39,015 nt of DNA from Candidatus Aenigmatarchaeota archaeon (GCA_018304565.1 JAGVVX010000007.1:1-39015), one strand, 5' to 3'. Counted from the first letter of the stretch, positions 239 through 11,609 are shown. Notes: generated by a model from the sequence alone, not told the origin. Program-made: numbers and translations.

Positions 239-3067
239 TTATTCGAGCAATATCCCTAGCTTCTGCGGGGCAGCCTGTTTGGCTTTTTTGTTTTCTGTCT
301 TGTTGGAATCAACTATTTCCACATGACAGTTGAATTCCGCTTCAAGAAATTTCTTGGCTTCTTTCAGTATCTGCATCTGCCAGTTTCTGGGAAGTATTGG
401 CTTTAGTTCGTTTAGCCTTTGATAAAGATTCTGGATAAAATTCACTGTTGCTTGCCCGTAGGCTTCACCTTGCATTATCTCTTTTGTTATTTCATTCATT
501 CCTTTGTCCTTGTTCCGCAGGACTTTGTTGTACACGCGGAATTTCCAGCCTTCGGCAACAAAAAGAGTTATCTTGTTTATCCTTTCCATCTTTGCTATTT
601 TTTTGATATCTTCGACACCTTTCATTGTATTCTCCAGGAGCGTTTCAGCTATTTCCGATTCTATATTTACAAGGTTCTGGTTATATCGCGGCCACTCCGC
701 GACCGATATGAAGCCTTTTCCGCCGGACATTTGCCAGAACTCCTCACACATGTGCGGTGTCAGAGGTGTCAGCATCTTTACAATGGCATTCAGTGTGGTT
801 TGCAACGCACGCCTGTTAGAATCTCTAACATTGCCCGTACGCTTCAGGTACCATTTAAGCAAGTTTGTGGAGTCAAAAAGTGCAAAGCTCACAGCCGTTC
901 TGAATTTCATCATTTCATAGTTCTTTGTAGATTCCTGTATAATCTTCTGCAGCTTGCTAAGAAGCCAAACATCAATGTTTCGCATCTCTTTTACACGGGC
1001 CTTTTTTGTATTCTTTATCAGGTCTTCAAGGAATTCGTACCTGCTTCGAAAACTCTTTATACCCTCAACGCGCCAGTCGGCGTCATCCATATTTTCATTA
1101 GATGCCGCAATGTTTATTCTCACCAAGTCGGCACCAAATTGCTTTATTATATCTCTGAGAGGCTGTATGTTGCCTTTTGACTTGCTCATTTTTTCGCCTT
1201 CGACATTCACATAACCGTTCGCACCAATTGCTTTTGGCCACATGTTTTCAGGCCATACAGCGACGTGATGGAAAAGGTAGAATGTAAGATGATTTTGTAT
1301 AAGGTCTTTCCCGCTGTTTCTCATGTCCATCGGGTAGAAGTAAACAAACTCGTCTCTCATTTGTTGAAGCAGTTTTAGATTCAGTTTTACAGACTTGGAG
1401 ACTTTTTTCACATCATCTTTGCCGAAGAAGATATAGTCAAAGACGCCGTCGGTTAGTTTTTTGGCCGGTATCTTTTTTTCATTAATTAGCCTTGCTATGG
1501 TGTAGTAGGCCATGTAAATTGTCGAGTCACTCAAAGTCTCAACAATCCACTCTTTATCCCACGGCAACGGTGTACCGAGTCCTGTCTTTCGCGCGCAAGC
1601 CTTGTCTTTCAACCAGTCAATTGTGTTAAGGAAGTTAGTTCTTGCTTCTTCGGGACAGAGTCTCATTCTCTCCAGGCATTTCCTCACAAGTTTCTTCCAG
1701 TTCTCGTCAGAAAATTTCAGGAACCACTGGTTTTCCAGTATTTTCACATAGTTCTTTGTTGTGCACCTGCAAACAACCTTGCCGGTTGTCTCCCACATTA
1801 TATCTGCTGCTCCCGCTTCTATAAAATCAAGAAATAGTTTTTCCTTTACTTCGCTTACTTTTGACCCTGCATATTCGCCGCAGTTTTCCCTTAGAACACC
1901 AAAGTGAAATTCCTTTTTGTAAACTATGCTCGTTGCTTCATCGAGTTTATCAATTTCTTTCGACGACATTATCCCTAGACGCTTCACAACTTCCATTGCC
2001 GGATGTTCACCAAACCCTTCGACTTTGACAACAGAAACAGGCTCTACGTCGTTTTTTGTCAGTCCGTAGAATTCCAGTTCGCCGCTTTCTATGAGCTCCT
2101 TAAGTGCCACCCAGTCGTATGGTGCGTGGCTTGGCACAGACATTACTATTCCTGTCGTATTTCCTGTATCAACAAAACTAGCAGGCAGTATAGAAATATC
2201 TTTATTGCCACAGGGGTCCTTTGCTTTTTTGCCTAGCAGCTCGTCACCTTTTATTCTTTCTATTATTTCGACTTTCTTCAACTGGTCTCCTAGTTTTTGT
2301 GCTGCAGATTCACTTATGACCCATTTCTCACCATCAACCTTGGCAACAACATATTCTGATTCCGGGTTTACCCAGATATTTGTCACCCCGTAAATAGTTT
2401 CAGGTCTCAAAGTAGCCGCGGGCAATATTTTATCACCCATCGAGAACTTTAGCAACGTATAGCCTACGGGCGATTCGCCTTCACCTTCGAGCCTGTCATG
2501 GTCGCCTGTAGGGGATTTGCAATGCGGACACCAAATGACAGGATGCGTGCCTTGGGTGACAAACCCCCTTTTCCTGAGGGTGTTATATTGCCATTCTATG
2601 AATCTGCTGAAAGTCGGATAAATTGCTGTGATGAAAACCCTGCGCCAGTCGATTGAGAAACCGACGCTTTTCATGTCTTCTATTATCTTTTTTGTCCAGA
2701 ACCGTGCAACATATTCAACGCCTTTGCCCTTGAAGTTCTTTATGTCCGTTTTCGTAGCACCATAGATACGAAAAGTCTCGAGCTGGCTTTTGTCGTTATT
2801 TCTTATGCGTTCTACAGTTCCAAGTATCGGCTCGCCTGTTGCGTGGAAGCCCTGAGCCAAAAGAACATTAAAGCCGCACATACGCTTGTACCGCGCGTAC
2901 GCATCAGTTCTGGTAAACGTGAATGTATGCCCAATATGCAGCCCGCCGTTGACGTAGGGTATTATAAGCGATGTAAAGAATTTCTTCCTCTTTTCTACAT
3001 CGGCTTCGAATATTTTCGATCGTTCCCATCTTTTTTGCCACTTCTTCTCTACCTTCTTGAAGTCCAT
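239..3067 (-). CDS. leuS: Leucyl-tRNA synthetase (archaeal type)
   Basis: 942 aa. Class I HIGH motif (GGLHIGHTF) and KMSKS motif (EKMSKSKGN). CP1 editing-domain-length insertion. Overall archaeal LeuRS pattern. Confidence 0.95.
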   Translation of the reverse strand: MDFKKVEKKWQKRWERSKIFEADVEKRKKFFTSLIIPYVNGGLHIGHTFTFTRTDAYARYKRMCGFNVLLAQGFHATGEPILGTVERIRNNDKSQLETFRIYGATKTDIKNFKGKGVEYVARFWTKKIIEDMKSVGFSIDWRRVFITAIYPTFSRFIEWQYNTLRKRGFVTQGTHPVIWCPHCKSPTGDHDRLEGEGESPVGYTLLKFSMGDKILPAATLRPETIYGVTNIWVNPESEYVVAKVDGEKWVISESAAQKLGDQLKKVEIIERIKGDELLGKKAKDPCGNKDISILPASFVDTGNTTGIVMSVPSHAPYDWVALKELIESGELEFYGLTKNDVEPVSVVKVEGFGEHPAMEVVKRLGIMSSKEIDKLDEATSIVYKKEFHFGVLRENCGEYAGSKVSEVKEKLFLDFIEAGAADIMWETTGKVVCRCTTKNYVKILENQWFLKFSDENWKKLVRKCLERMRLCPEEARTNFLNTIDWLKDKACARKTGLGTPLPWDKEWIVETLSDSTIYMAYYTIARLINEKKIPAKKLTDGVFDYIFFGKDDVKKVSKSVKLNLKLLQQMRDEFVYFYPMDMRNSGKDLIQNHLTFYLFHHVAVWPENMWPKAIGANGYVNVEGEKMSKSKGNIQPLRDIIKQFGADLVRINIAASNENMDDADWRVEGIKSFRSRYEFLEDLIKNTKKARVKEMRNIDVWLLSKLQKIIQESTKNYEMMKFRTAVSFALFDSTNLLKWYLKRTGNVRDSNRRALQTTLNAIVKMLTPLTPHMCEEFWQMSGGKGFISVAEWPRYNQNLVNIESEIAETLLENTMKGVEDIKKIAKMERINKITLFVAEGWKFRVYNKVLRNKDKGMNEITKEIMQGEAYGQATVNFIQNLYQRLNELKPILPRNWQMQILKEAKKFLEAEFNCHVEIVDSNKTENKKAKQAAPQKLGILLE

Positions 3068-3121
3068 ACCAATACCTAGATATACAATAATAAAAGGAAA
3101 TTAAAATAAAAAAGAACAAGA

Positions 3122-3343
3122 TTAATCCTGATTATAAGGCAAAGCTGGCGGATCTTTTGTACCTCGCATGCGGGCTCTTAGACCAGGCGTACGAGCCCAG
3201 ATAAAAGATGGCTTTTTGCTATCACCGTCTTGTGGAGCCATTCTATACGCTCTACCGCCTTCAGGTAACGTAAGTCTTCCTGGTTCTCTTGGAGCAAACC
3301 CCTCATTCAGGTACCCCATGTCTGCATCTACCATTTTCTTCAT
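3122..3343 (-). CDS. Small hypothetical protein (73 aa, G/P/R-rich)
   Basis: GGGAGG Shine-Dalgarno-like sequence abuts the first ATG and sits 9 nt before the second in-frame ATG. Locally GC-rich. No family recognised. A competing + strand ORF (3168..3383) looks less protein-like. Confidence 0.35.
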   Translation of the reverse strand: MKKMVDADMGYLNEGFAPREPGRLTLPEGGRAYRMAPQDGDSKKPSFIWARTPGLRARMRGTKDPPALPYNQD

Positions 3344-3576
3344 CCTCCCGTTTTTTCTACAGTCCCCTGTGACGACATCATAAGAAATGAAAAGAAGTCG
3401 TCATTTATCAAGCAGCTTACCGCTTGATAGTGACAGAAGCAGGGCTAAGCAAACATATGAGCGGATTTTGCTTTGCCTGCATATTTTTCAATAAATATTC
3501 GGGAAGAAGAATTTAAATACCTTATTGGAAGCCGCACTGCAATATTAATCACTTTCCACCGAATGAATAATAAAAC

Positions 3577-3728
3577 GGGCGCGTAGCTCAGTTTGGATAG
3601 AGCATCAAGCTTTGGCGTGTAAGCCTTCTAAGCTGAGGGCCGCGGGTTCGAAAAGCCCTTTTCTTCCAGAGAAAAACGCTTGCGGAAAAGAAACCGGGAG
3701 AAGGGGTACGAAATTCCCGTCGCGCCCA
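3577..3728 (+). tRNA. tRNA-Arg(TCT) with two introns: ~15 nt inside the anticodon stem (about 3607-3621, position 28/29-29/30) and ~62 nt in the T-loop (about 3653-3714, position 59/60)
   Basis: Acceptor GGGCGCG/CGCGCCC+A. D arm GCTC-AGTTTGGATA-GAGC. After removing 15 nt the anticodon arm is TCAGC-CTTCTAA-GCTGA. Variable region GGGCC. T stem GCGGG...CCCGT with T-loop TTCGAA|T restored only after removing ~62 nt. The spliced length is 75 nt. Confidence 0.7.
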
Positions 3729-3760
3729 TTAATTATTGCAAAGGAACTTGCTTCTTTGAG

Positions 3761-3810
3761 ACCCCGGAGAGCAAAGCTCTCCGGGGTAATACTTCGGGCT
3801 TTAGCCCGAA
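3761..3810 (+). repeat. Two tandem perfect hairpins in the tRNA-Arg trailer
   Basis: ACCCCGGAGAGC-AAA-GCTCTCCGGGGT (12 bp, 3761-3787) and TTCGGGC-TTTA-GCCCGAA (3793-3810). Same CGGAGAxC...GxTCTCCG style as the hairpins in tRNA introns elsewhere in the window. Confidence 0.7.
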
Positions 3811-3878
3811 TATATTATTGATTATTAAAAAAACAGCCAATAGCAGCTTAAAAATCTTCCCAAATGTAATTATACAGT

Positions 3879-4640
3879 ATGACAAGAATCATAGCCTGCG
3901 TTTCTGGTAAAGGTGGAGCAGGAAAAACGACGCTTGTCGCCAATATCGGAACAGCAATCGCAGAAATCGGCAAAGACATAATAGTTGTTGATACAAACCT
4001 CACAACACCAAATCTTGGCATTCATCTTGGGGTGCCATTGTACCCAACAACCCTTCATGATGTTCTCAAAGGGCATGCGTCCATCAAAGATGCAATCTAT
4101 GAGCATGATTCTGGCCTCAAAGTAATTCCCGCGGGCCTTTCTATGCGTGACCTGCGCGGCGCAGACATACGTGACCTATCAAATACGCTCCTAGATCTTC
4201 TTGGCAACGCAGAAATAATAATGCTTGACTCGGCTGCCGGCTTAGGCAGGGAAGCACTCACGGCCATGGAAACAGCCGACGAAATTCTTATTGTAACAAA
4301 CCCTGATCTTCCATCGGTTACTGACGCGTTAAAAGCAGCAAGGCTTGCAGAACAAACAGGCACAAAAATCATCGGCGCTGTTATAAACCGCGCAACAGGC
4401 AAGCCGCACGAATTGACAAAATTTGAAATACAAAGCATGCTTGAAAACATAGACATACTGGCAACTATTCCTGAAGATATCAGTGTTCAAAGGGCATTAT
4501 CAAGACGCACGCCTGTAATAAATCACTCTCCAAAATCACCAGCCGCACACAAAATGCGAAGCATTGCAGCACAACTAGTCGGCTATGAGTACAAAATACC
4601 CATACCTTGGTACAGAAGGATTTTACTTCTCAGGCGATAA
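3879..4640 (+). CDS. MinD/ParA-family P-loop ATPase (archaeal MinD-like)
   Basis: Deviant Walker A SGKGGAGKTT at the N-terminus. MinD-like switch regions (DTNL, LDSAAG). 253 aa. Confidence 0.85.
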   Translation: MTRIIACVSGKGGAGKTTLVANIGTAIAEIGKDIIVVDTNLTTPNLGIHLGVPLYPTTLHDVLKGHASIKDAIYEHDSGLKVIPAGLSMRDLRGADIRDLSNTLLDLLGNAEIIMLDSAAGLGREALTAMETADEILIVTNPDLPSVTDALKAARLAEQTGTKIIGAVINRATGKPHELTKFEIQSMLENIDILATIPEDISVQRALSRRTPVINHSPKSPAAHKMRSIAAQLVGYEYKIPIPWYRRILLLRR

Positions 4641-4835
4641 ATATCGAAAGATTTCCAAAGAAAAAAAAGAAGCGGCCGCTTGAAGACAATCCAATGCGCG
4701 ATATACGACCCAGAAAGTGGAAGCCACAAAAAAGGGACGCTTGATGGGAAAAATATTTTATCTTCATGAACCTTTCAGAAAAAGTGACAAATGACCTGCG
4801 ATCGATGCTATTGGTGTCTTATAGTCAACAATAAA

Positions 4836-6476
4836 TCACTTTTTCAAATAGAATACTTTTTGCAAATCCAACTCAAATGCAACTACAGGCTTCTCAAGTT
4901 TCCAGTTGTTGAGTACCTGTGGGTGTATTTCGCCTATAGTGCCAAACTGTTCATTCCCTATTTTAATTCCCGCCGCCCGGCCTTCTATAAAGCTTGGATG
5001 CTTTAATGGATTAAATTTATAGGACAGGCCGAGTTGATTAAGCAAAGCGTCAAGGACTGAAGAGATATCCTCATAACTTACCTTGGAATTCGATATTACT
5101 GCGGCCAGCTTCAGCATGTCCATGGAGCCCGTTTCTGATTCTTTATCAGGCACGACAGTATAGCCTATTTCAAATATTTTCTGCGGATATTCCCTGTGAA
5201 GATTCTGTGCCAGTACATCCATTAATGATGGCAACAGGTTTTTCCTGCATATCGTGCATTCCACGGAAACAGGATTTAGCGTCTCGCAGGCGTCCTCTTT
5301 CTTTATCAGCATCTTTTCGAATTCATCAATTTCGTTTGTAAGAATCATAGAAACAGCTTCTTGGAATCCCATGCCTTTCATCAAATTGCTGGCGAATTCA
5401 GAGAATTCTTCCATGTCGTAGCGTTGTGCTATAGTAGGGACTTTTGGCACACGTGGTTCAAATTTCTCATAACCATGAGCTATAGCCACATCTTCGACAA
5501 CATCAATTTCATGCATTATGTCAGCCCTGTAGCATGGGACTAGTACATATTTTCCGTCGAATCCAAAACCCATTCTTGCTATTGTTTCAATAAACTCAGC
5601 CTTTGAAAGATCTAAATCAAGCAACTTGTTAACGTAATCCAAATTTACTAGTATTCTCCTTGGATTCAAATTAGGCGTTTTTTTCTTGTTAATACTGACA
5701 GTCTCTATCTTGAAACCTCTTTCTGCAAGCGAAGTGACTATAATGTTCAGTGCATGATTGACTGCACCTTCATGCAACCCCGTAATATCTATGAACAGGT
5801 TTTTCGTCTTTTCAGTAACGCGCGTTAGTTCGCCGTTTATCACAGGAGGGAAACTTAAGACATCGTTGTTTTTGTCTACTATAACAGGCCATCTCTTTGC
5901 GCGTTTCAATATGCTAACGTATCCGCCCTTCTCATGTTTTTTCTCTATCTCCCCAAGCGTCATCTTTTCTTTCTTGCCCAACGGAATGAATTTTATTTCG
6001 TCAGGCATTACAGCCTTGTATCTGAAAGGCTGTTTTACCTTGTCTAAGTCATGAAGTCCGATGGCTACTTTCTTCCTTTTCCTGCCCATCGTGTCATGGA
6101 TCTTTTCCTGGACTTGTACTAGAGAAGCAATAACATCGTGAGTCAGCCTTACATTCCTGACAACAGCAGCCGCTATATGCGGTCTCACGTTAGAAACTGA
6201 CTTCTCTACGTGAAGCCTGATGCCGCTAGGTAATGCCTTGTAAGATACCAAGCCTTTTGAAAATCCTAAGAAAGTTCTTGCGGCTCTTGTAAATCCTTCA
6301 GTGCTAAGCATATCGGGCCTGTTAGGAAATACTTCATAGAGTACTTTATCCTTTTCCAACTTCTCAAGCGGACAGCCCATCATTGGTATCTTTTCAAGAT
6401 GTTCCTTTGTGAGCTTCTTTCCTGCAAGCTTATCCAAGTCCTTTAGCGAAAATTCGACTACAGCCATAATTACCAC
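4836..6476 (-). CDS. pheT: Phenylalanyl-tRNA synthetase beta subunit (archaeal type)
   Basis: 546 aa, archaeal/eukaryal-type B3/4-B5-catalytic-like layout. Overlaps the end of pheS by 7 nt (operon). Confidence 0.9.
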   Translation of the reverse strand: MVIMAVVEFSLKDLDKLAGKKLTKEHLEKIPMMGCPLEKLEKDKVLYEVFPNRPDMLSTEGFTRAARTFLGFSKGLVSYKALPSGIRLHVEKSVSNVRPHIAAAVVRNVRLTHDVIASLVQVQEKIHDTMGRKRKKVAIGLHDLDKVKQPFRYKAVMPDEIKFIPLGKKEKMTLGEIEKKHEKGGYVSILKRAKRWPVIVDKNNDVLSFPPVINGELTRVTEKTKNLFIDITGLHEGAVNHALNIIVTSLAERGFKIETVSINKKKTPNLNPRRILVNLDYVNKLLDLDLSKAEFIETIARMGFGFDGKYVLVPCYRADIMHEIDVVEDVAIAHGYEKFEPRVPKVPTIAQRYDMEEFSEFASNLMKGMGFQEAVSMILTNEIDEFEKMLIKKEDACETLNPVSVECTICRKNLLPSLMDVLAQNLHREYPQKIFEIGYTVVPDKESETGSMDMLKLAAVISNSKVSYEDISSVLDALLNQLGLSYKFNPLKHPSFIEGRAAGIKIGNEQFGTIGEIHPQVLNNWKLEKPVVAFELDLQKVFYLKK

Positions 6477-7723
6477 ATGTTTATTTCCCTTAGCAGTTTC
6501 AGGTCATTTTTACAGTAGAAATTTCTGACGTCATTTATGCCATGCTTCAGCGCGATTGTTCTTTCAAGACCTAATCCCCACGCCAAGACTGGAACATCTA
6601 TCCCCAGAGGTTGTGTAACTTCAGGCCTGAATATACCTGATCCGCCCAGTTCTATCCACTCTTTTTTCTCTTCAAAGTACACTTCCGGTTCTGCGGACAT
6701 TTCAGTGTAAGGGAAGTATGCCGGTCTGAATCTTATTTTTTTGAACCCCATGCGTGTATAGAACTCCTTTAGATACCCAAGCAAATCACGAAAAGTAACA
6801 TTCTCATCGACAACAATACCTTCTACTTGTGTGAATTCAGGCAGATGCTTGTAATCCAGTGTCTCATTCCTGAAAACTCTGCCTATGCAGAAAACTTTTG
6901 CAGGTGGTTTTAACTTACTTAGTTCTCTAACAGAAACTGCTGTCGCATGGGTACGCATTACCGCTTTCTTCGCTACTTCCCTGTTCCATTTATACCCCCA
7001 GCCAGACGAGCCTGTATTACCGCCCTTTTCATGCGCTTCTCTGACCTCATTCACAACGTTTTCTGCCGGTAATTTGCAGGATTCCGGGGTTTTCATATAA
7101 AATGTATCTGCCATTTCGCGTGCAGGATGATCTTGCGGCTGATAAAGCGCGTCGAAATTCCAGAAGCTTGATTCCAGCAAAGGTCCCCTGGCTTCCTTGA
7201 AACCAAGATCAAAGAATATGTTCCTTATCTTCTGTATATAGAAAGAAAGCAAGTGTGTTTTACCCGGATAGATTTTAGTGCCCGCGAGTTCGACATTATA
7301 AGGCTTCAGTTTTACTTGTTTCCAATATTTAGTTTTTATTAAATCTTCAGTGAGGTTTGCAACTTCTTGGCCTGCGAGTTTCTCAGCTTTCTTTACAGCC
7401 GTTTCTCTCTGTTTTTCTATGAGTTTTCTTTGTACTAGTACATCAAGCAAACGGTTTTCTACATGATCCCCGCCTGCAAGTTTCTTTAACGCTTCGTACT
7501 CCGGTATATTTTTCGGATTTCTGACAAGCGCAAGCTTGTTGTTTTCTATTTTAATCCAGCCATGTTTTTTCGCCCATTGCAAAGCTATGGAGAAGTTTTC
7601 TACCTTTTCCTTTGCTTCAGTGAAATCTACAGGCCCGGACATAAGCAATTCAATTAAACGCATTTCAGGCAGTCCATACTTGAGATAATTCCTTCCTTCA
7701 TCAGTCAGTGTATATTCTTGCAT
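6470..7723 (-). CDS. pheS: Phenylalanyl-tRNA synthetase alpha subunit
   Basis: 417 aa. Class II core with motif 2/3-like segments (FRNETLDYKHLPEFTQVEG; GLGLERT). Directly upstream of pheT. Confidence 0.9.
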   Translation of the reverse strand: MQEYTLTDEGRNYLKYGLPEMRLIELLMSGPVDFTEAKEKVENFSIALQWAKKHGWIKIENNKLALVRNPKNIPEYEALKKLAGGDHVENRLLDVLVQRKLIEKQRETAVKKAEKLAGQEVANLTEDLIKTKYWKQVKLKPYNVELAGTKIYPGKTHLLSFYIQKIRNIFFDLGFKEARGPLLESSFWNFDALYQPQDHPAREMADTFYMKTPESCKLPAENVVNEVREAHEKGGNTGSSGWGYKWNREVAKKAVMRTHATAVSVRELSKLKPPAKVFCIGRVFRNETLDYKHLPEFTQVEGIVVDENVTFRDLLGYLKEFYTRMGFKKIRFRPAYFPYTEMSAEPEVYFEEKKEWIELGGSGIFRPEVTQPLGIDVPVLAWGLGLERTIALKHGINDVRNFYCKNDLKLLREINMW

Positions 7724-7780
7724 GATATCAATCTTGTTTATTCATATTTTAAAAGTAAAGAAAAAAGCATATTTATACGA

Positions 7781-7903
7781 GGAATACCACCTGTCTTTAG
7801 GCGGCGGTATTATTATTCGTGGTATTCCGGTATAAAAGAATCCACATGTGTTATTAGTGGTATTTCACAGAAATACCACCATCTTCAGGCCGTGGATTCT
7901 TTT
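7781..7903. promoter_or_regulatory. Palindromic module pair in the pheS/glyS divergent intergenic region (R1 copy 7781-7833, R2 copy 7834-7903)
   Basis: R1: GGAATACCAC-N28-GTGGTATTCC followed by GGTAT. R2: nested AAAAGAATCCAC...GTGGTATTTC-ACA-GAAATACCAC...GTGGATTCTTTT. Read on the minus strand, R1 is followed by TCGTATAAATAT (TATA-like) about 45 nt before the pheS ATG. Confidence 0.6.
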
Positions 7904-7930
7904 TATAAAACTTCTTGGGAAAGTTAGTTC

Positions 7931-9430
7931 ATGTCTAGCGCAGAGAAAATAGAAGACATAGCAAAACGCAAAGGTTTCTTCTGGCTTTCTTCGGAAATAT
8001 ACGGCGGCATGTCGGGTTTCTACGACTATGGCCATCTGGGCGCCTTAATGAAAAGGAAATGGGAAAACCTTTGGCGCAGTTATTTCCTCTCACTTGACGA
8101 TAATTTCTATGAAATATCGCCTGCAACAATAATGCCGGAAGGCGTCTTTGTCGCGTCTGGGCATTTGGAAAGTTTTGTAGACCCCGTTGTAAAATGCAAG
8201 AAATGCGGCCACATGGAACGGGCTGACCATATACTTGAAGAGGAGCTCAAGGAAAACTTTGAGGGCGTATCAAGTGAAGAACTTGAAAAGCTCATAAAGC
8301 AGCACGGGATAAAATGCAGCAAATGTCGGGGCCCTTTGGAAGAAGTAGGCACTCTAAATATGATGTTTCCTCTGAATGTAGGCACAACAAAAGTAACCAA
8401 GGCGTATCTTGTTCCTGAGACAGCCCAGGAAGCTTTTGTGAATTTCAAAAGGCAGTTCGAAGTCTTGAGAAAGCAGCTGCCTTTGGGCCTTGCTGTAGTA
8501 GGAAAAGCCTACAGGAATGAGATATCACCTAGAAACCTTTTGCTGCGCATGCGGGAGTTTACTCAGGCAGAACTTCAGATTTTTTTCGATCATGATAACG
8601 TTGGCGAACATGAAGAATTTGATGAAATAAAAGACTACAAATTGTGTTTATTCCCTACCGCCAACAAACAAACAGGCAAAGTTGAAGAGGTATCTTGTTG
8701 GGCTATTATTGAAAAGATGGACCTGCCAAAATTCTATGTCTATCATCTAGCTAAGATACAGCAGTTCTACTTGGATATACTGAAAATACCAAAAGAAAAA
8801 TTCAGGCTTCGAGAACTGTCTGAAGAAGAACGGGCTTTTTACAATAAAATCCATTGGGATATAGAGGTCGAACTAAATGATCTGGGTTTTAAGGAGTTAG
8901 GCGGTTGCCACTACAGGACCGATCATGATCTAAGCGGCCATCAAAAAATATCAAAACAAGACATGACAGTGAACATAGAAGGAAAAGAAATCCTTGCACA
9001 CGTCCTGGAACTTTCCTTTGGTGTAGACAGGAACATTTACGCCCTGCTTGACATAGCTTATGCCGAGGAAAAAGATCGCACTGTATTAAGGCTTCCTTTT
9101 GGTGCCGCACCTTATGATGCAGCCATACTTCCACTTGTAAATAAAGAAGGCATGCCGGGCCTTGCTGAAAAAATAAAAGATGTCCTGAAAGCGAAAGGCT
9201 TCACCGTATTTTATGACTATTCCGGCTCGATAGGCCGCCGTTATCGCCGTATGGATGAAATAGGCACGCCTTTCTGCATTACAGTAGACACAGGCTCTCT
9301 CAGCAGCAAGGACGTAACTATTCGCGACAGAGATTCAATGAAGCAGATACGGGTAGGAATAGAACACCTTCCAATGGTTTTGGAACAACTGATAAATTAC
9401 AGGATAGAATTCACAGAAGCTGAGAAATGA
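7931..9430 (+). CDS. glyS: Glycyl-tRNA synthetase (archaeal/eukaryal alpha2 type)
   Basis: 499 aa. N-terminal KRKGFFWLSSEIYGGMSGFYDYGHLG signature. Class II motifs. C-terminal anticodon-binding domain pattern. Confidence 0.9.
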   Translation: MSSAEKIEDIAKRKGFFWLSSEIYGGMSGFYDYGHLGALMKRKWENLWRSYFLSLDDNFYEISPATIMPEGVFVASGHLESFVDPVVKCKKCGHMERADHILEEELKENFEGVSSEELEKLIKQHGIKCSKCRGPLEEVGTLNMMFPLNVGTTKVTKAYLVPETAQEAFVNFKRQFEVLRKQLPLGLAVVGKAYRNEISPRNLLLRMREFTQAELQIFFDHDNVGEHEEFDEIKDYKLCLFPTANKQTGKVEEVSCWAIIEKMDLPKFYVYHLAKIQQFYLDILKIPKEKFRLRELSEEERAFYNKIHWDIEVELNDLGFKELGGCHYRTDHDLSGHQKISKQDMTVNIEGKEILAHVLELSFGVDRNIYALLDIAYAEEKDRTVLRLPFGAAPYDAAILPLVNKEGMPGLAEKIKDVLKAKGFTVFYDYSGSIGRRYRRMDEIGTPFCITVDTGSLSSKDVTIRDRDSMKQIRVGIEHLPMVLEQLINYRIEFTEAEK

Positions 9431-11000: not shown

Positions 11001-11609
11001 CTAAGGCTTCATTCTCTGGATGATGTAGTAAGTTGCATCGCCTTCGTTGTCAACAACGGCCCAGAGCATACGTGCGCGGATGTTATGAGCCAGCCTTACG
11101 GAACGCGAAAGTTCCTGGAAAGACAGTGTGTAGTCCTCAGGCACGCAAAACACTATCCATTTTGTGTGCTCTTTTGCACTCTTTGGGCCTTTCTTAAGCT
11201 GTACACCACGTTCATAGACACGGAAATCGCAGCCAAACTTGAAGCCAGTCCGTACTAGAAGCCCGCGCTCTCTTAGGTCTTCGTAAACACGATAGCGCTC
11301 GGGAAACCTCCTATCCAGGTTCCGCGCATGGTCATATAGTTCCTGGAAATTTATCTGTTTCCCGCTTGAAAACACTCTTATTCTTCCTCGCTTAAGAAGC
11401 AGGCAGGCTTCGACCATAGCGAGTTCAAGCCTGTCGCCTATCTGCTTGCCATAGTAACCAGGCTCATAAATCTTTTCAGACCCTTTCCATGCAACAACCT
11501 TGCTTTCTTCCAGCTGCGTGTCTATAATTTCCTTTATTTGTTCAGGTTCTACATAGTCCGGTTTATCTTCCCATTCTTCTAATTCCTTATTCTTTTTACT
11601 CATAATCAT
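11001..11609 (-). CDS. endA: tRNA-splicing endonuclease (EndA), short single-unit form
   Basis: 202 aa. C-terminal catalytic-domain signature RTGFKFGCDFRVYE, then EHTKWIVFCV and RSVRLAHNIR segments typical of archaeal EndA. Confidence 0.85.
   Translation of the reverse strand: MIMSKKNKELEEWEDKPDYVEPEQIKEIIDTQLEESKVVAWKGSEKIYEPGYYGKQIGDRLELAMVEACLLLKRGRIRVFSSGKQINFQELYDHARNLDRRFPERYRVYEDLRERGLLVRTGFKFGCDFRVYERGVQLKKGPKSAKEHTKWIVFCVPEDYTLSFQELSRSVRLAHNIRARMLWAVVDNEGDATYYIIQRMKP

Follow-up and report, generated by a model that had tools for sequence, protein, structure and literature searches.

[quoted passage not shown]

Background

Archaeal tRNA genes that carry several introns at non-canonical positions are already known from the Thermoproteales, where the introns are bounded by bulge-helix-bulge (BHB) motifs, and T-loop introns are likewise known from ARMAN-2. 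Pyrobaculum islandicum has introns at three sites of its tRNA-Pro(UGG) gene, 25/26, 37/38 and 56/57 (Sugahara et al. 2007/2008, reviewed in PMC4090602 and PMC4033280). In ARMAN-2 (Candidatus Micrarchaeum), pre-tRNA-Cys(GCA) has an intron at 59/60, and pre-tRNA-Pro(GGG) has introns at both 53/54 and 59/60 (Fujishima et al. 2011, PMC3239211). In the canonical motif, the first two anticodon bases belong to the central helix, H (PMC4090602), and the catalytic Tyr of the splicing endonuclease, EndA, is positioned at the 2'-OH of bulge base B2 (PMC5829648).

The endonucleases of such organisms have also been described. Hirata et al. 2012 defined a basic loop, residues 90-98, in the enzyme of Nanoarchaeum equitans (NEQ; PMC3488258). 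Kaneta et al. 2018 named the loop L3 and reported L3-bearing alpha4-type EndAs in DPANN archaea with many disrupted tRNA genes (PMC5829648). Loops of the NEQ type have been tied to broad specificity and to heavily disrupted DPANN tRNA sets (PMC3488258, PMC5829648); the broad specificity of the single-subunit L3-loop enzymes was left open by Kaneta et al. 2018 (PMC5829648). The Tyr-His-Lys triad of EndA is described in the literature as well conserved, and the ARMAN-2 enzyme is inactivated by the mutation K282A.

A dedicated description of tRNA introns in Aenigmatarchaeota was not found in the literature. The current work concerns one gene of this lineage, located at 3577-3728 in the window, that is, in the whole 39,015-nt stretch of DNA that was analysed (Candidatus Aenigmatarchaeota archaeon, GCA_018304565.1 JAGVVX010000007.1:1-39015). 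An earlier note, made from the sequence alone, had read the gene as a tRNA-Arg(TCT) that forms a cloverleaf only after two introns are removed.

Identity and anatomy of the gene

The stretch 3577-3728 is confirmed as a real arginine tRNA gene, missed by standard gene finders owing to two small protein-spliced introns. Its parts are as follows.

3577-3728, plus strand: the 152-nt tRNA-Arg(UCU) gene, with three exons split by two introns
3577-3607, plus strand: exon 1, with the acceptor 5' strand, the D arm, nt 26 and anticodon-stem nt 27-29
3608-3622, plus strand: intron 1, 15 nt, AGCTTTGGCGTGTAA, at position 29/30
3623-3652, plus strand: exon 2, from nt 30-31 through T-loop nt 54-59 (TTCGAA)
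3653-3714, plus strand: intron 2, 62 nt, at position 59/60 in the T loop
3715-3728, plus strand: exon 3, with T-loop nt 60, the 3' strands of the T stem and the acceptor stem, and the discriminator A
3541-3549, plus strand: AATATTAAT, which lies about 32 nt before the start of the mature tRNA and may be an archaeal TATA box

A perfect acceptor pair, GGGCGCG/CGCGCCC, had been described across 152 nt, and the sequence is exactly so: GGGCGCG (3577-3583) faces CGCGCCC (3721-3727), followed by the discriminator, A3728. The D arm reads GCTC / AGTTTGGATA / GAGC, and its loop, AGTTTGGATA, contains A20, an Arg identity element. In exon 2, the anticodon loop CTTCTAA (anticodon TCT) is followed by GCTGA, the variable loop GGGCC and the T stem GCGGG. 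The gene does not contain CCA; TTAATT comes directly after A73. Upstream, the AATATTAAT block is identical in the congeneric genome G001.

The two deletions proposed by the earlier note, of about 15 and about 62 nt, both have the effect that was claimed for them. The first restores the anticodon stem TCAGC/GCTGA and gives the arm TCAGC-CTTCTAA-GCTGA; the second, of 3653-3714, completes the T loop and gives GCGGG-TTCGAAT-CCCGT. Both introns lie at non-canonical positions, as the note had said: one at 29/30, inside the range 28/29-29/30 that it allowed, and the other at 59/60. The 75-nt product, spliced in silico, is a canonical cloverleaf in which 21 of the 21 stem pairs form, and ARAGORN calls it tRNA-Arg(tct). 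Its Arg(UCU) identity is seen in a 7-nt loop where UCU is accompanied by U33 and A37, in a class I body, in A20 and in orthology. ARAGORN, run without its intron option, does not call the unspliced 3577-3728. The Rfam tRNA model gives no match to the unspliced locus either.

The intron option of ARAGORN, a check that the earlier note had recommended, returned tRNA-Leu(taa) i(38,60) for the unspliced DNA, which would make the locus a class II tRNA-Leu(UAA) with one 60-nt canonical intron. That output is a forced fit: it treats as 'intron' both the GGGTTCGAA T arm and the true anticodon arm, uses a T loop, TACGAAATT, that lacks TTC, and leaves the variable arm unpaired. Orthologues of the gene, interrupted or not, are all tRNA-Arg(UCU), and there is next to no chance that the leucine assignment is right.

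Splice motifs at the two junctions

Splice sites were placed by a rule in which a 4-bp helix H lies between two 3-nt bulges on opposite strands and cleavage follows the second bulge base. Under this rule, H must join intron bases n-5 to n-2 to the exon bases that stand at -6 to -3 ahead of the 5' cut. Both introns of 3577-3728 have a 4-bp H and two 3-nt bulges; a BHB-type motif, which the earlier note had named as the feature to look for, is therefore present at each junction.

In intron 2, H has 4/4 pairs, between TTCG (3647-3650, nt 54-57) and CGAA (3709-3712), and is flanked by the bulges AA|A (3651-3653) and AT|T (3713-3715). The motif has the following extent.

3642-3720, plus strand: BHB motif of intron 2, with the T stem, GCGGG (3642-3646)/CCCGT (3716-3720), as outer helix

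The inner helix is long and begins past one irregular A, unpaired or mismatched, beside the 5' bulge. Inside the intron lie the sequence GCTTGCGGAAA and a hairpin rich in CT/GA. The BHB is just what minimum-free-energy folding predicts, and it is nearly a strict hBHBh'.

The motif of intron 1 is much smaller. Its H pairs GCAT (3602-3605, tRNA nt 24-27) with GTGT (3617-3620), again with 4/4 pairs, two of them G-U, and lies between bulges of CA|A (3606-3608) and AA|G (3621-3623). The inner helix h' is a mini-hairpin of 2 bp, GC-TTTG-GC. The intron is thus made up of the third nucleotide of the 5' bulge, the h' hairpin, GTGT and the AA that opens the 3' bulge, a layout of 1+8+4+2 nt that is the minimal possible. 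Deletion of 3607-3621 would give the same spliced product as deletion of 3608-3622; the former, with its cut at 28/29, was rejected, as its H has only 2/4 pairs against 4/4 for the latter.

Because H of intron 1 uses nt 24-27, half of the D stem is opened in the precursor and there is no outer helix, which places the motif in the relaxed HBh' type. A contiguous outer helix for this intron was found in none of the 15 genomes that carry the 29/30 intron. An enzyme that accepts relaxed motifs is consequently needed, a requirement on which the earlier note had been correct. Taken as a whole, the gene departs from strict hBHBh' in two ways: the irregular A in intron 2 and the missing outer helix in intron 1. 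When the whole precursor is folded to minimum free energy, intron 1 does not show its BHB, and enforcing the motif costs 3.8 kcal/mol; since the same folding program gives no cloverleaf for the mature sequence, this fold was not used against the motif.

Orthologues and covariation

The spliced 75-mer was searched against about 60 related genomes. In eight relatives, ARAGORN finds uninterrupted tRNA-Arg(tct) genes that are identical to the spliced product at 62-66 of 75 positions. The interrupted orthologues, once spliced, are identical at 70-74 of 75, with 74/75 in G001.

The 29/30 intron is present in the orthologous gene of 15 genomes from nine genera of one family, and it measures 13-32 nt. 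H has 4/4 pairs in every one of the 15. The partners change in a manner that keeps the pairing: C27 faces G only, U27 faces A or G, and G24 faces C or U. The first pair of h' occurs in four forms (GC, UA, AU, CG). The inner hairpins are unrelated in sequence, with the four H bases kept. In an alignment of 12 distinct sequences, registered on splice junctions that were fixed by exon homology, 97.2% of the cells are paired, against 6-63% in slid-partner controls. The observed pairing and covariation were reached by 0 of 500 shuffles, an outcome that is not a probability because the aligned sequences are related. The 59/60 intron behaves in a similar way; its H has 4/4 or 3/4 pairs in seven of eight orthologues and in ten tRNA genes of the present genome (G000).

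Introns at several other positions were found in the tRNA-Arg(UCU) genes of the relatives, up to three per gene. These include the canonical 37/38 intron, a 40/41 intron (H = CUAA/UUAG) in G002, G014 and G022, a 53/54 intron (H = CGCG/CGCG) in G001, G005 and G022, and a D-loop intron in G024; the 59/60 intron itself occurs in eight genomes. G002 has no T-arm intron in this gene.

The closest comparison is with G001, which belongs to the same genus as G000, encodes an identical EndA protein and has flanks that are 95.5-97.4% identical. Homology between the two genomes around the tRNA gene ends exactly at the T stem, and G001 has a 32-nt intron at 53/54 in place of the 59/60 intron.

A gene for a 251-aa LAGLIDADG endonuclease converges on tRNA-Arg(UCU) in G001 (locus L022, G001:C1:3331-6400; ORF 764-1519, plus strand). 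Its last 71 nt are antisense to the 3' part of the tRNA and take in the 53/54 intron; the TAG stop faces the anticodon loop. No LAGLIDADG gene is present at the tRNA-Arg(UCU) locus of G000, and no LAGLIDADG ORF or remnant was found beside the 53/54-bearing gene in G005 or G022. A constant pairing of the 53/54 intron with a LAGLIDADG gene was considered and is unsupported: it holds in G001 and fails in G005 and G022. As these two genomes have the intron without the gene, the intron and the endonuclease gene are not obligatorily linked.

The host genome and its other tRNA genes

The genome, G000, is a Candidatus Aenigmatarchaeota (DPANN) groundwater MAG of 0.81 Mb in 64 contigs, 85% complete. 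The neighbouring PheRS alpha gene is a 100% match to a contig of Candidatus Aenigmatarchaeota archaeon isolate NC_groundwater_308_Ag_B-0.1um_45_55, and the nearest relatives are likewise Aenigmatarchaeota MAGs; the host is therefore a DPANN archaeon. The earlier note had compared the gene with those of Thermoproteales-type archaea. Two-intron layouts of this kind are indeed known in that group, but the host itself is not of Thermoproteales type.

The tRNA gene lies within a cluster of translation genes that spans 239-9430 of the window, with EndA 7 kb off. The synteny of this cluster is kept in relatives, such as G022 (contig C87). The neighbours are listed below.

239-3067, minus strand: LeuRS
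3879-4640: MinD/ParA-type ATPase
4836-7723, minus strand: PheRS beta and alpha
7931-9430: class II aaRS

Two perfect hairpins stand in the trailer of the tRNA, at 3761-3787 (CCCCGGAGAGC-AAA-GCTCTCCGGGG) and 3793-3810 (TTCGGGC-TTTA-GCCCGAA). Near-identical copies occur on contigs C36, C1 and C5, and the hairpins look like small mobile hairpin modules.

Interruption is the rule among the tRNA genes of G000. ARAGORN with the intron option reports 14 tRNA genes, 12 of them intron-bearing, and Rfam reports 11. A wide regular-expression search for T-loop introns was too noisy without acceptor-stem and D-arm signatures, and a partial census was made in which the acceptor stem, the D arm and the T arm were all required. 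This census gave about 23 candidate tRNA genes, only two of which are 91 nt or shorter; ten contain introns at 59/60. Nearly all tRNA genes of G000 are thus interrupted.

The same two-intron layout, 29/30 plus 59/60, was observed in tRNA-Gly(UCC) of G000 (C2:20694-20899, minus strand). At 29/30 it has a 14-nt intron (ACGTAAGGGGGTAT, H = ACCT/GGGT), which is similar to the 13-nt intron at that position in the G002 tRNA-Arg (ACGTAAGGTGCAA), and at 59/60 an intron of 121 nt.

An intron family could also be recognised in G000, whose members, intron 2 among them, begin with AAGCCCTTT, contain GCTTGCGGAAA and terminate in CGAAAT. Its sites include C1:10437-10694, C7:7483-7715, C24:7765-8020, C56:13736-13873 and about 14860 of the window (minus strand). 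Most members sit at 59/60 in the T loop, and one is at the canonical 37/38 position of tRNA-Asp. Copies of GCTTGCGGAAA number 13 in the genome and are mostly inside tRNA introns.

These data bear on where intron 2 came from. It is significantly similar to at least six other T-loop introns of G000 (z 5-7 against shuffles), with which it has AAGCCCTTT, GCTTGCGGAAA and CGAAAT in common, and its module is also found inside the canonical intron of tRNA-Asp. It is unlike the 59/60 introns of the G018, G020, G032 and G056 orthologues; the close congener has a 53/54 intron instead, and G002 is without a T-arm intron. A comparable spread of introns has been reported for the Thermoproteales (Fujishima 2010, as summarised in PMC4033280). 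By a slight balance, these observations favour intron 2 as a recent arrival, with a T-loop or canonical intron from a different tRNA gene of G000 as its template, and not as an inheritance from the ancestor of the family. The similarity scores may be inflated by low-complexity composition, however, and the G024 orthologue, from another genus, has a 59/60 intron significantly similar to intron 2, so that inheritance followed by losses could also account for it.

The resemblance of intron 2 to sequences at other loci of G000, and the mobility of small hairpin modules in the lineage, could also be taken to mean that the locus is a decaying pseudogene, in which a former tRNA-Arg, now unused, was broken by two small insertions of mobile DNA. 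The exons do not bear this out, as they are intact, form every stem pair after splicing and differ from G001 at 1 of 75 nt, while the flanks differ by 3-4.5%. Fifteen genomes retain the 29/30 insert, with changes that preserve pairing, and almost all tRNA genes of G000 are interrupted likewise. A second tRNA-Arg(UCU) was searched for in G000 and not found; at 85% completeness an intact copy might be missed there. The near-complete relatives G001 (93% complete, 5 contigs) and G005 (90%, 2 contigs) likewise gave no second gene, and in both the best match to the spliced 75-mer is the interrupted gene. Moreover, AGA makes up 31% of the Arg codons in the long ORFs of the genome. Decay of the gene is accordingly very improbable, and a functional tRNA gene remains the preferred interpretation.

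The splicing enzymes EndA and RtcB

The window encodes a tRNA-splicing endonuclease.

11004-11609, minus strand: EndA, tRNA-splicing endonuclease, 202 aa, with N and C domains

Both PF02778 and PF01974 are found in this 202-aa protein, the latter at C61:11028-11306 with 98.6 bits. Among solved structures, the M. jannaschii enzyme (1A79), a homotetramer, is the closest to it. No second EndA or beta subunit was detected in G000 by profile search and tBLASTN, or in five relatives at least 90% complete. One EndA gene that encodes both domains, with no gene for a beta subunit, is the pattern of the alpha4 type, to which this EndA may belong. Relative to 1A79, the protein has a 6-residue insert before the catalytic His. 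This C-domain loop is the only extra insert, and the N domain has none. The alignment with N. equitans EndA (3IEY_A) is gapless through the basic loop (LKKGPKSAKEH vs PKKGKRSEREH), and the Nanoarchaeum-type basic loop is L138-K146. The acidic loop, VDNEGD, is kept and is M. jannaschii-like; according to the 1998 EndA structure, this loop reportedly makes tetramer contacts. On these features of its sequence, EndA appears to be a single-copy alpha-type enzyme with a Nanoarchaeum-type loop, not a crenarchaeal (alpha-beta)2 enzyme, and it is likely the enzyme for these introns.

The active site departs from the usual pattern. Tyr132 and His148 are present, but Ala179 stands at the canonical position of the catalytic Lys, a residue kept in all characterised EndAs, and the Tyr-His-Lys triad is incomplete. 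Ala179 aligns with Lys156 of M. jannaschii (AHNIRARM vs AHSVRKKL) and with the lysines of NEQ (STRK), A. fulgidus (NVRK) and M. kandleri (SVRK); the M. jannaschii numbering offset was checked on His125 and Tyr115. An Ala is found at this position in 30/30 relatives and in 120/120 nearest cluster representatives, where the next residue is Arg (104) or Lys (16). As a rule, Arg-Lys is found in the 150 EndA representatives of a set clustered at 50% identity; Ala, Ser or Thr at the catalytic-Lys position is confined to the nearest clade of single-domain proteins, most of which have a long basic loop with an invariant Gly-Pro-Lys.

These residues and the introns may be considered together. Lys143 (in the GPK of the Nanoarchaeum-type loop; invariant) or Arg/Lys180 may replace the catalytic Lys. 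In that case, the loop to which relaxed substrate specificity is ascribed would also be bound up with catalysis. The introns, for their part, may be favoured for breaking the DNA sites of tRNA-docking LAGLIDADG homing endonucleases, which are common in these genomes. The combined proposal, an EndA with a rewired active site and introns of this gene that belong to mobile families tolerated by it, is speculative and rather unlikely.

In family f7, the relatives G042, G048, G052, G055, G057, G059 and G060 have a second EndA-like ORF of about 400-485 aa besides the ordinary EndA. The ORF (e.g. G055:C2:48043-49137) matches the EndA query in two or three consecutive units, and it may encode a multi-unit endonuclease, epsilon2- or alpha'2-like.

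An RtcB ligase is present on contig C38 (487 bits). The match, at G000 C38:9867-12665 on the minus strand, is in two pieces about 1.4 kb apart in one 990-aa open frame, which suggests an intein in the tRNA ligase gene.

Proposed processing and significance

With a probability of roughly 0.88, 3577-3728 is a functional tRNA-Arg(UCU) gene and, it appears, the sole one in this genome, with two protein-spliced BHB introns whose processing by EndA and RtcB we infer from the genes present. A precursor of about 152 nt would be transcribed from the locus. Each intron would pair with the exon directly upstream to form a BHB, and the two 3-nt bulges would be cut after the second base. The T-loop motif would copy the canonical 37/38 geometry, with the T stem as outer helix, and the 29/30 motif would be a relaxed HBh'-type substrate built on tRNA nt 24-27. 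All four cuts could be made by the single EndA (11004-11609), after which RtcB would join the three exons and CCA would be added. The expected product is a 75-nt tRNA that reads AGA.

Since the layout of the gene is already known in archaea, the result is chiefly an annotation fix; the Aenigmatarchaeota lineage and its 29/30 mini-intron series are new instances of a known gene type. The annotation gains an essential tRNA that was missing, for a codon that accounts for about a third of Arg codons. The figures of 14 tRNA genes from ARAGORN and 11 from Rfam show that standard tRNA finders badly under-call such genomes. One orthologous tRNA with introns at six positions, together with a near-identical genome pair that differs only in the T-arm intron, makes a compact natural series that could serve the study of gain, movement and loss of BHB introns. 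The 29/30 intron is a clean relaxed substrate, and it could be used to probe the broad specificity of a single-subunit EndA with a Nanoarchaeum-type loop.

Comparison with known systems

ARMAN-2 is similar in many respects. It too belongs to DPANN, has BHB introns at 59/60, several introns per gene and many disrupted tRNA genes, and its 53/54 intron has counterparts here in the relatives G001, G005 and G022. Unlike in ARMAN-2, the second intron of 3577-3728 is in the anticodon stem, at 29/30. The enzymes also differ: the ARMAN-2 EndA is a three-unit epsilon2 protein with an ASL loop, whose cleavage was shown in vitro, whereas the enzyme here is predicted to be a single 202-aa alpha-type protein with the Nanoarchaeum-type loop.

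[quoted passage not shown] The Thermoproteales (Thermoproteota) have an (alpha-beta)2 EndA with a Crenarchaea-specific loop; in these Aenigmatarchaeota, in contrast, no beta subunit was found. The present gene would work as theirs do, but it falls outside that set.

With N. equitans, the likeness is in the enzyme and in its setting. The basic loop of the NEQ EndA (PDB 3IEY chain A), K93 K94 G K96 R97, corresponds to K139 K140 G P K143, and in both organisms a basic-loop EndA stands alongside heavily disrupted tRNA genes. The NEQ enzyme has retained the catalytic Lys (STRKK) and depends on a second, structural subunit, whereas the EndA of G000 has its own N domain, the VDNEGD loop, Ala179 and no partner gene that could be found.

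Finally, intron 2 follows the pattern of the canonical 37/38 intron with its strict hBHBh' motif. As in that intron, the outer helix h is a stem of 5 bp, loop nt 1-4 pair with the 3' end of the intron as H, and the cut falls between nt 6 and 7 of a 7-nt loop. It differs in being located in the T loop and in the one irregular A beside the 5' bulge.
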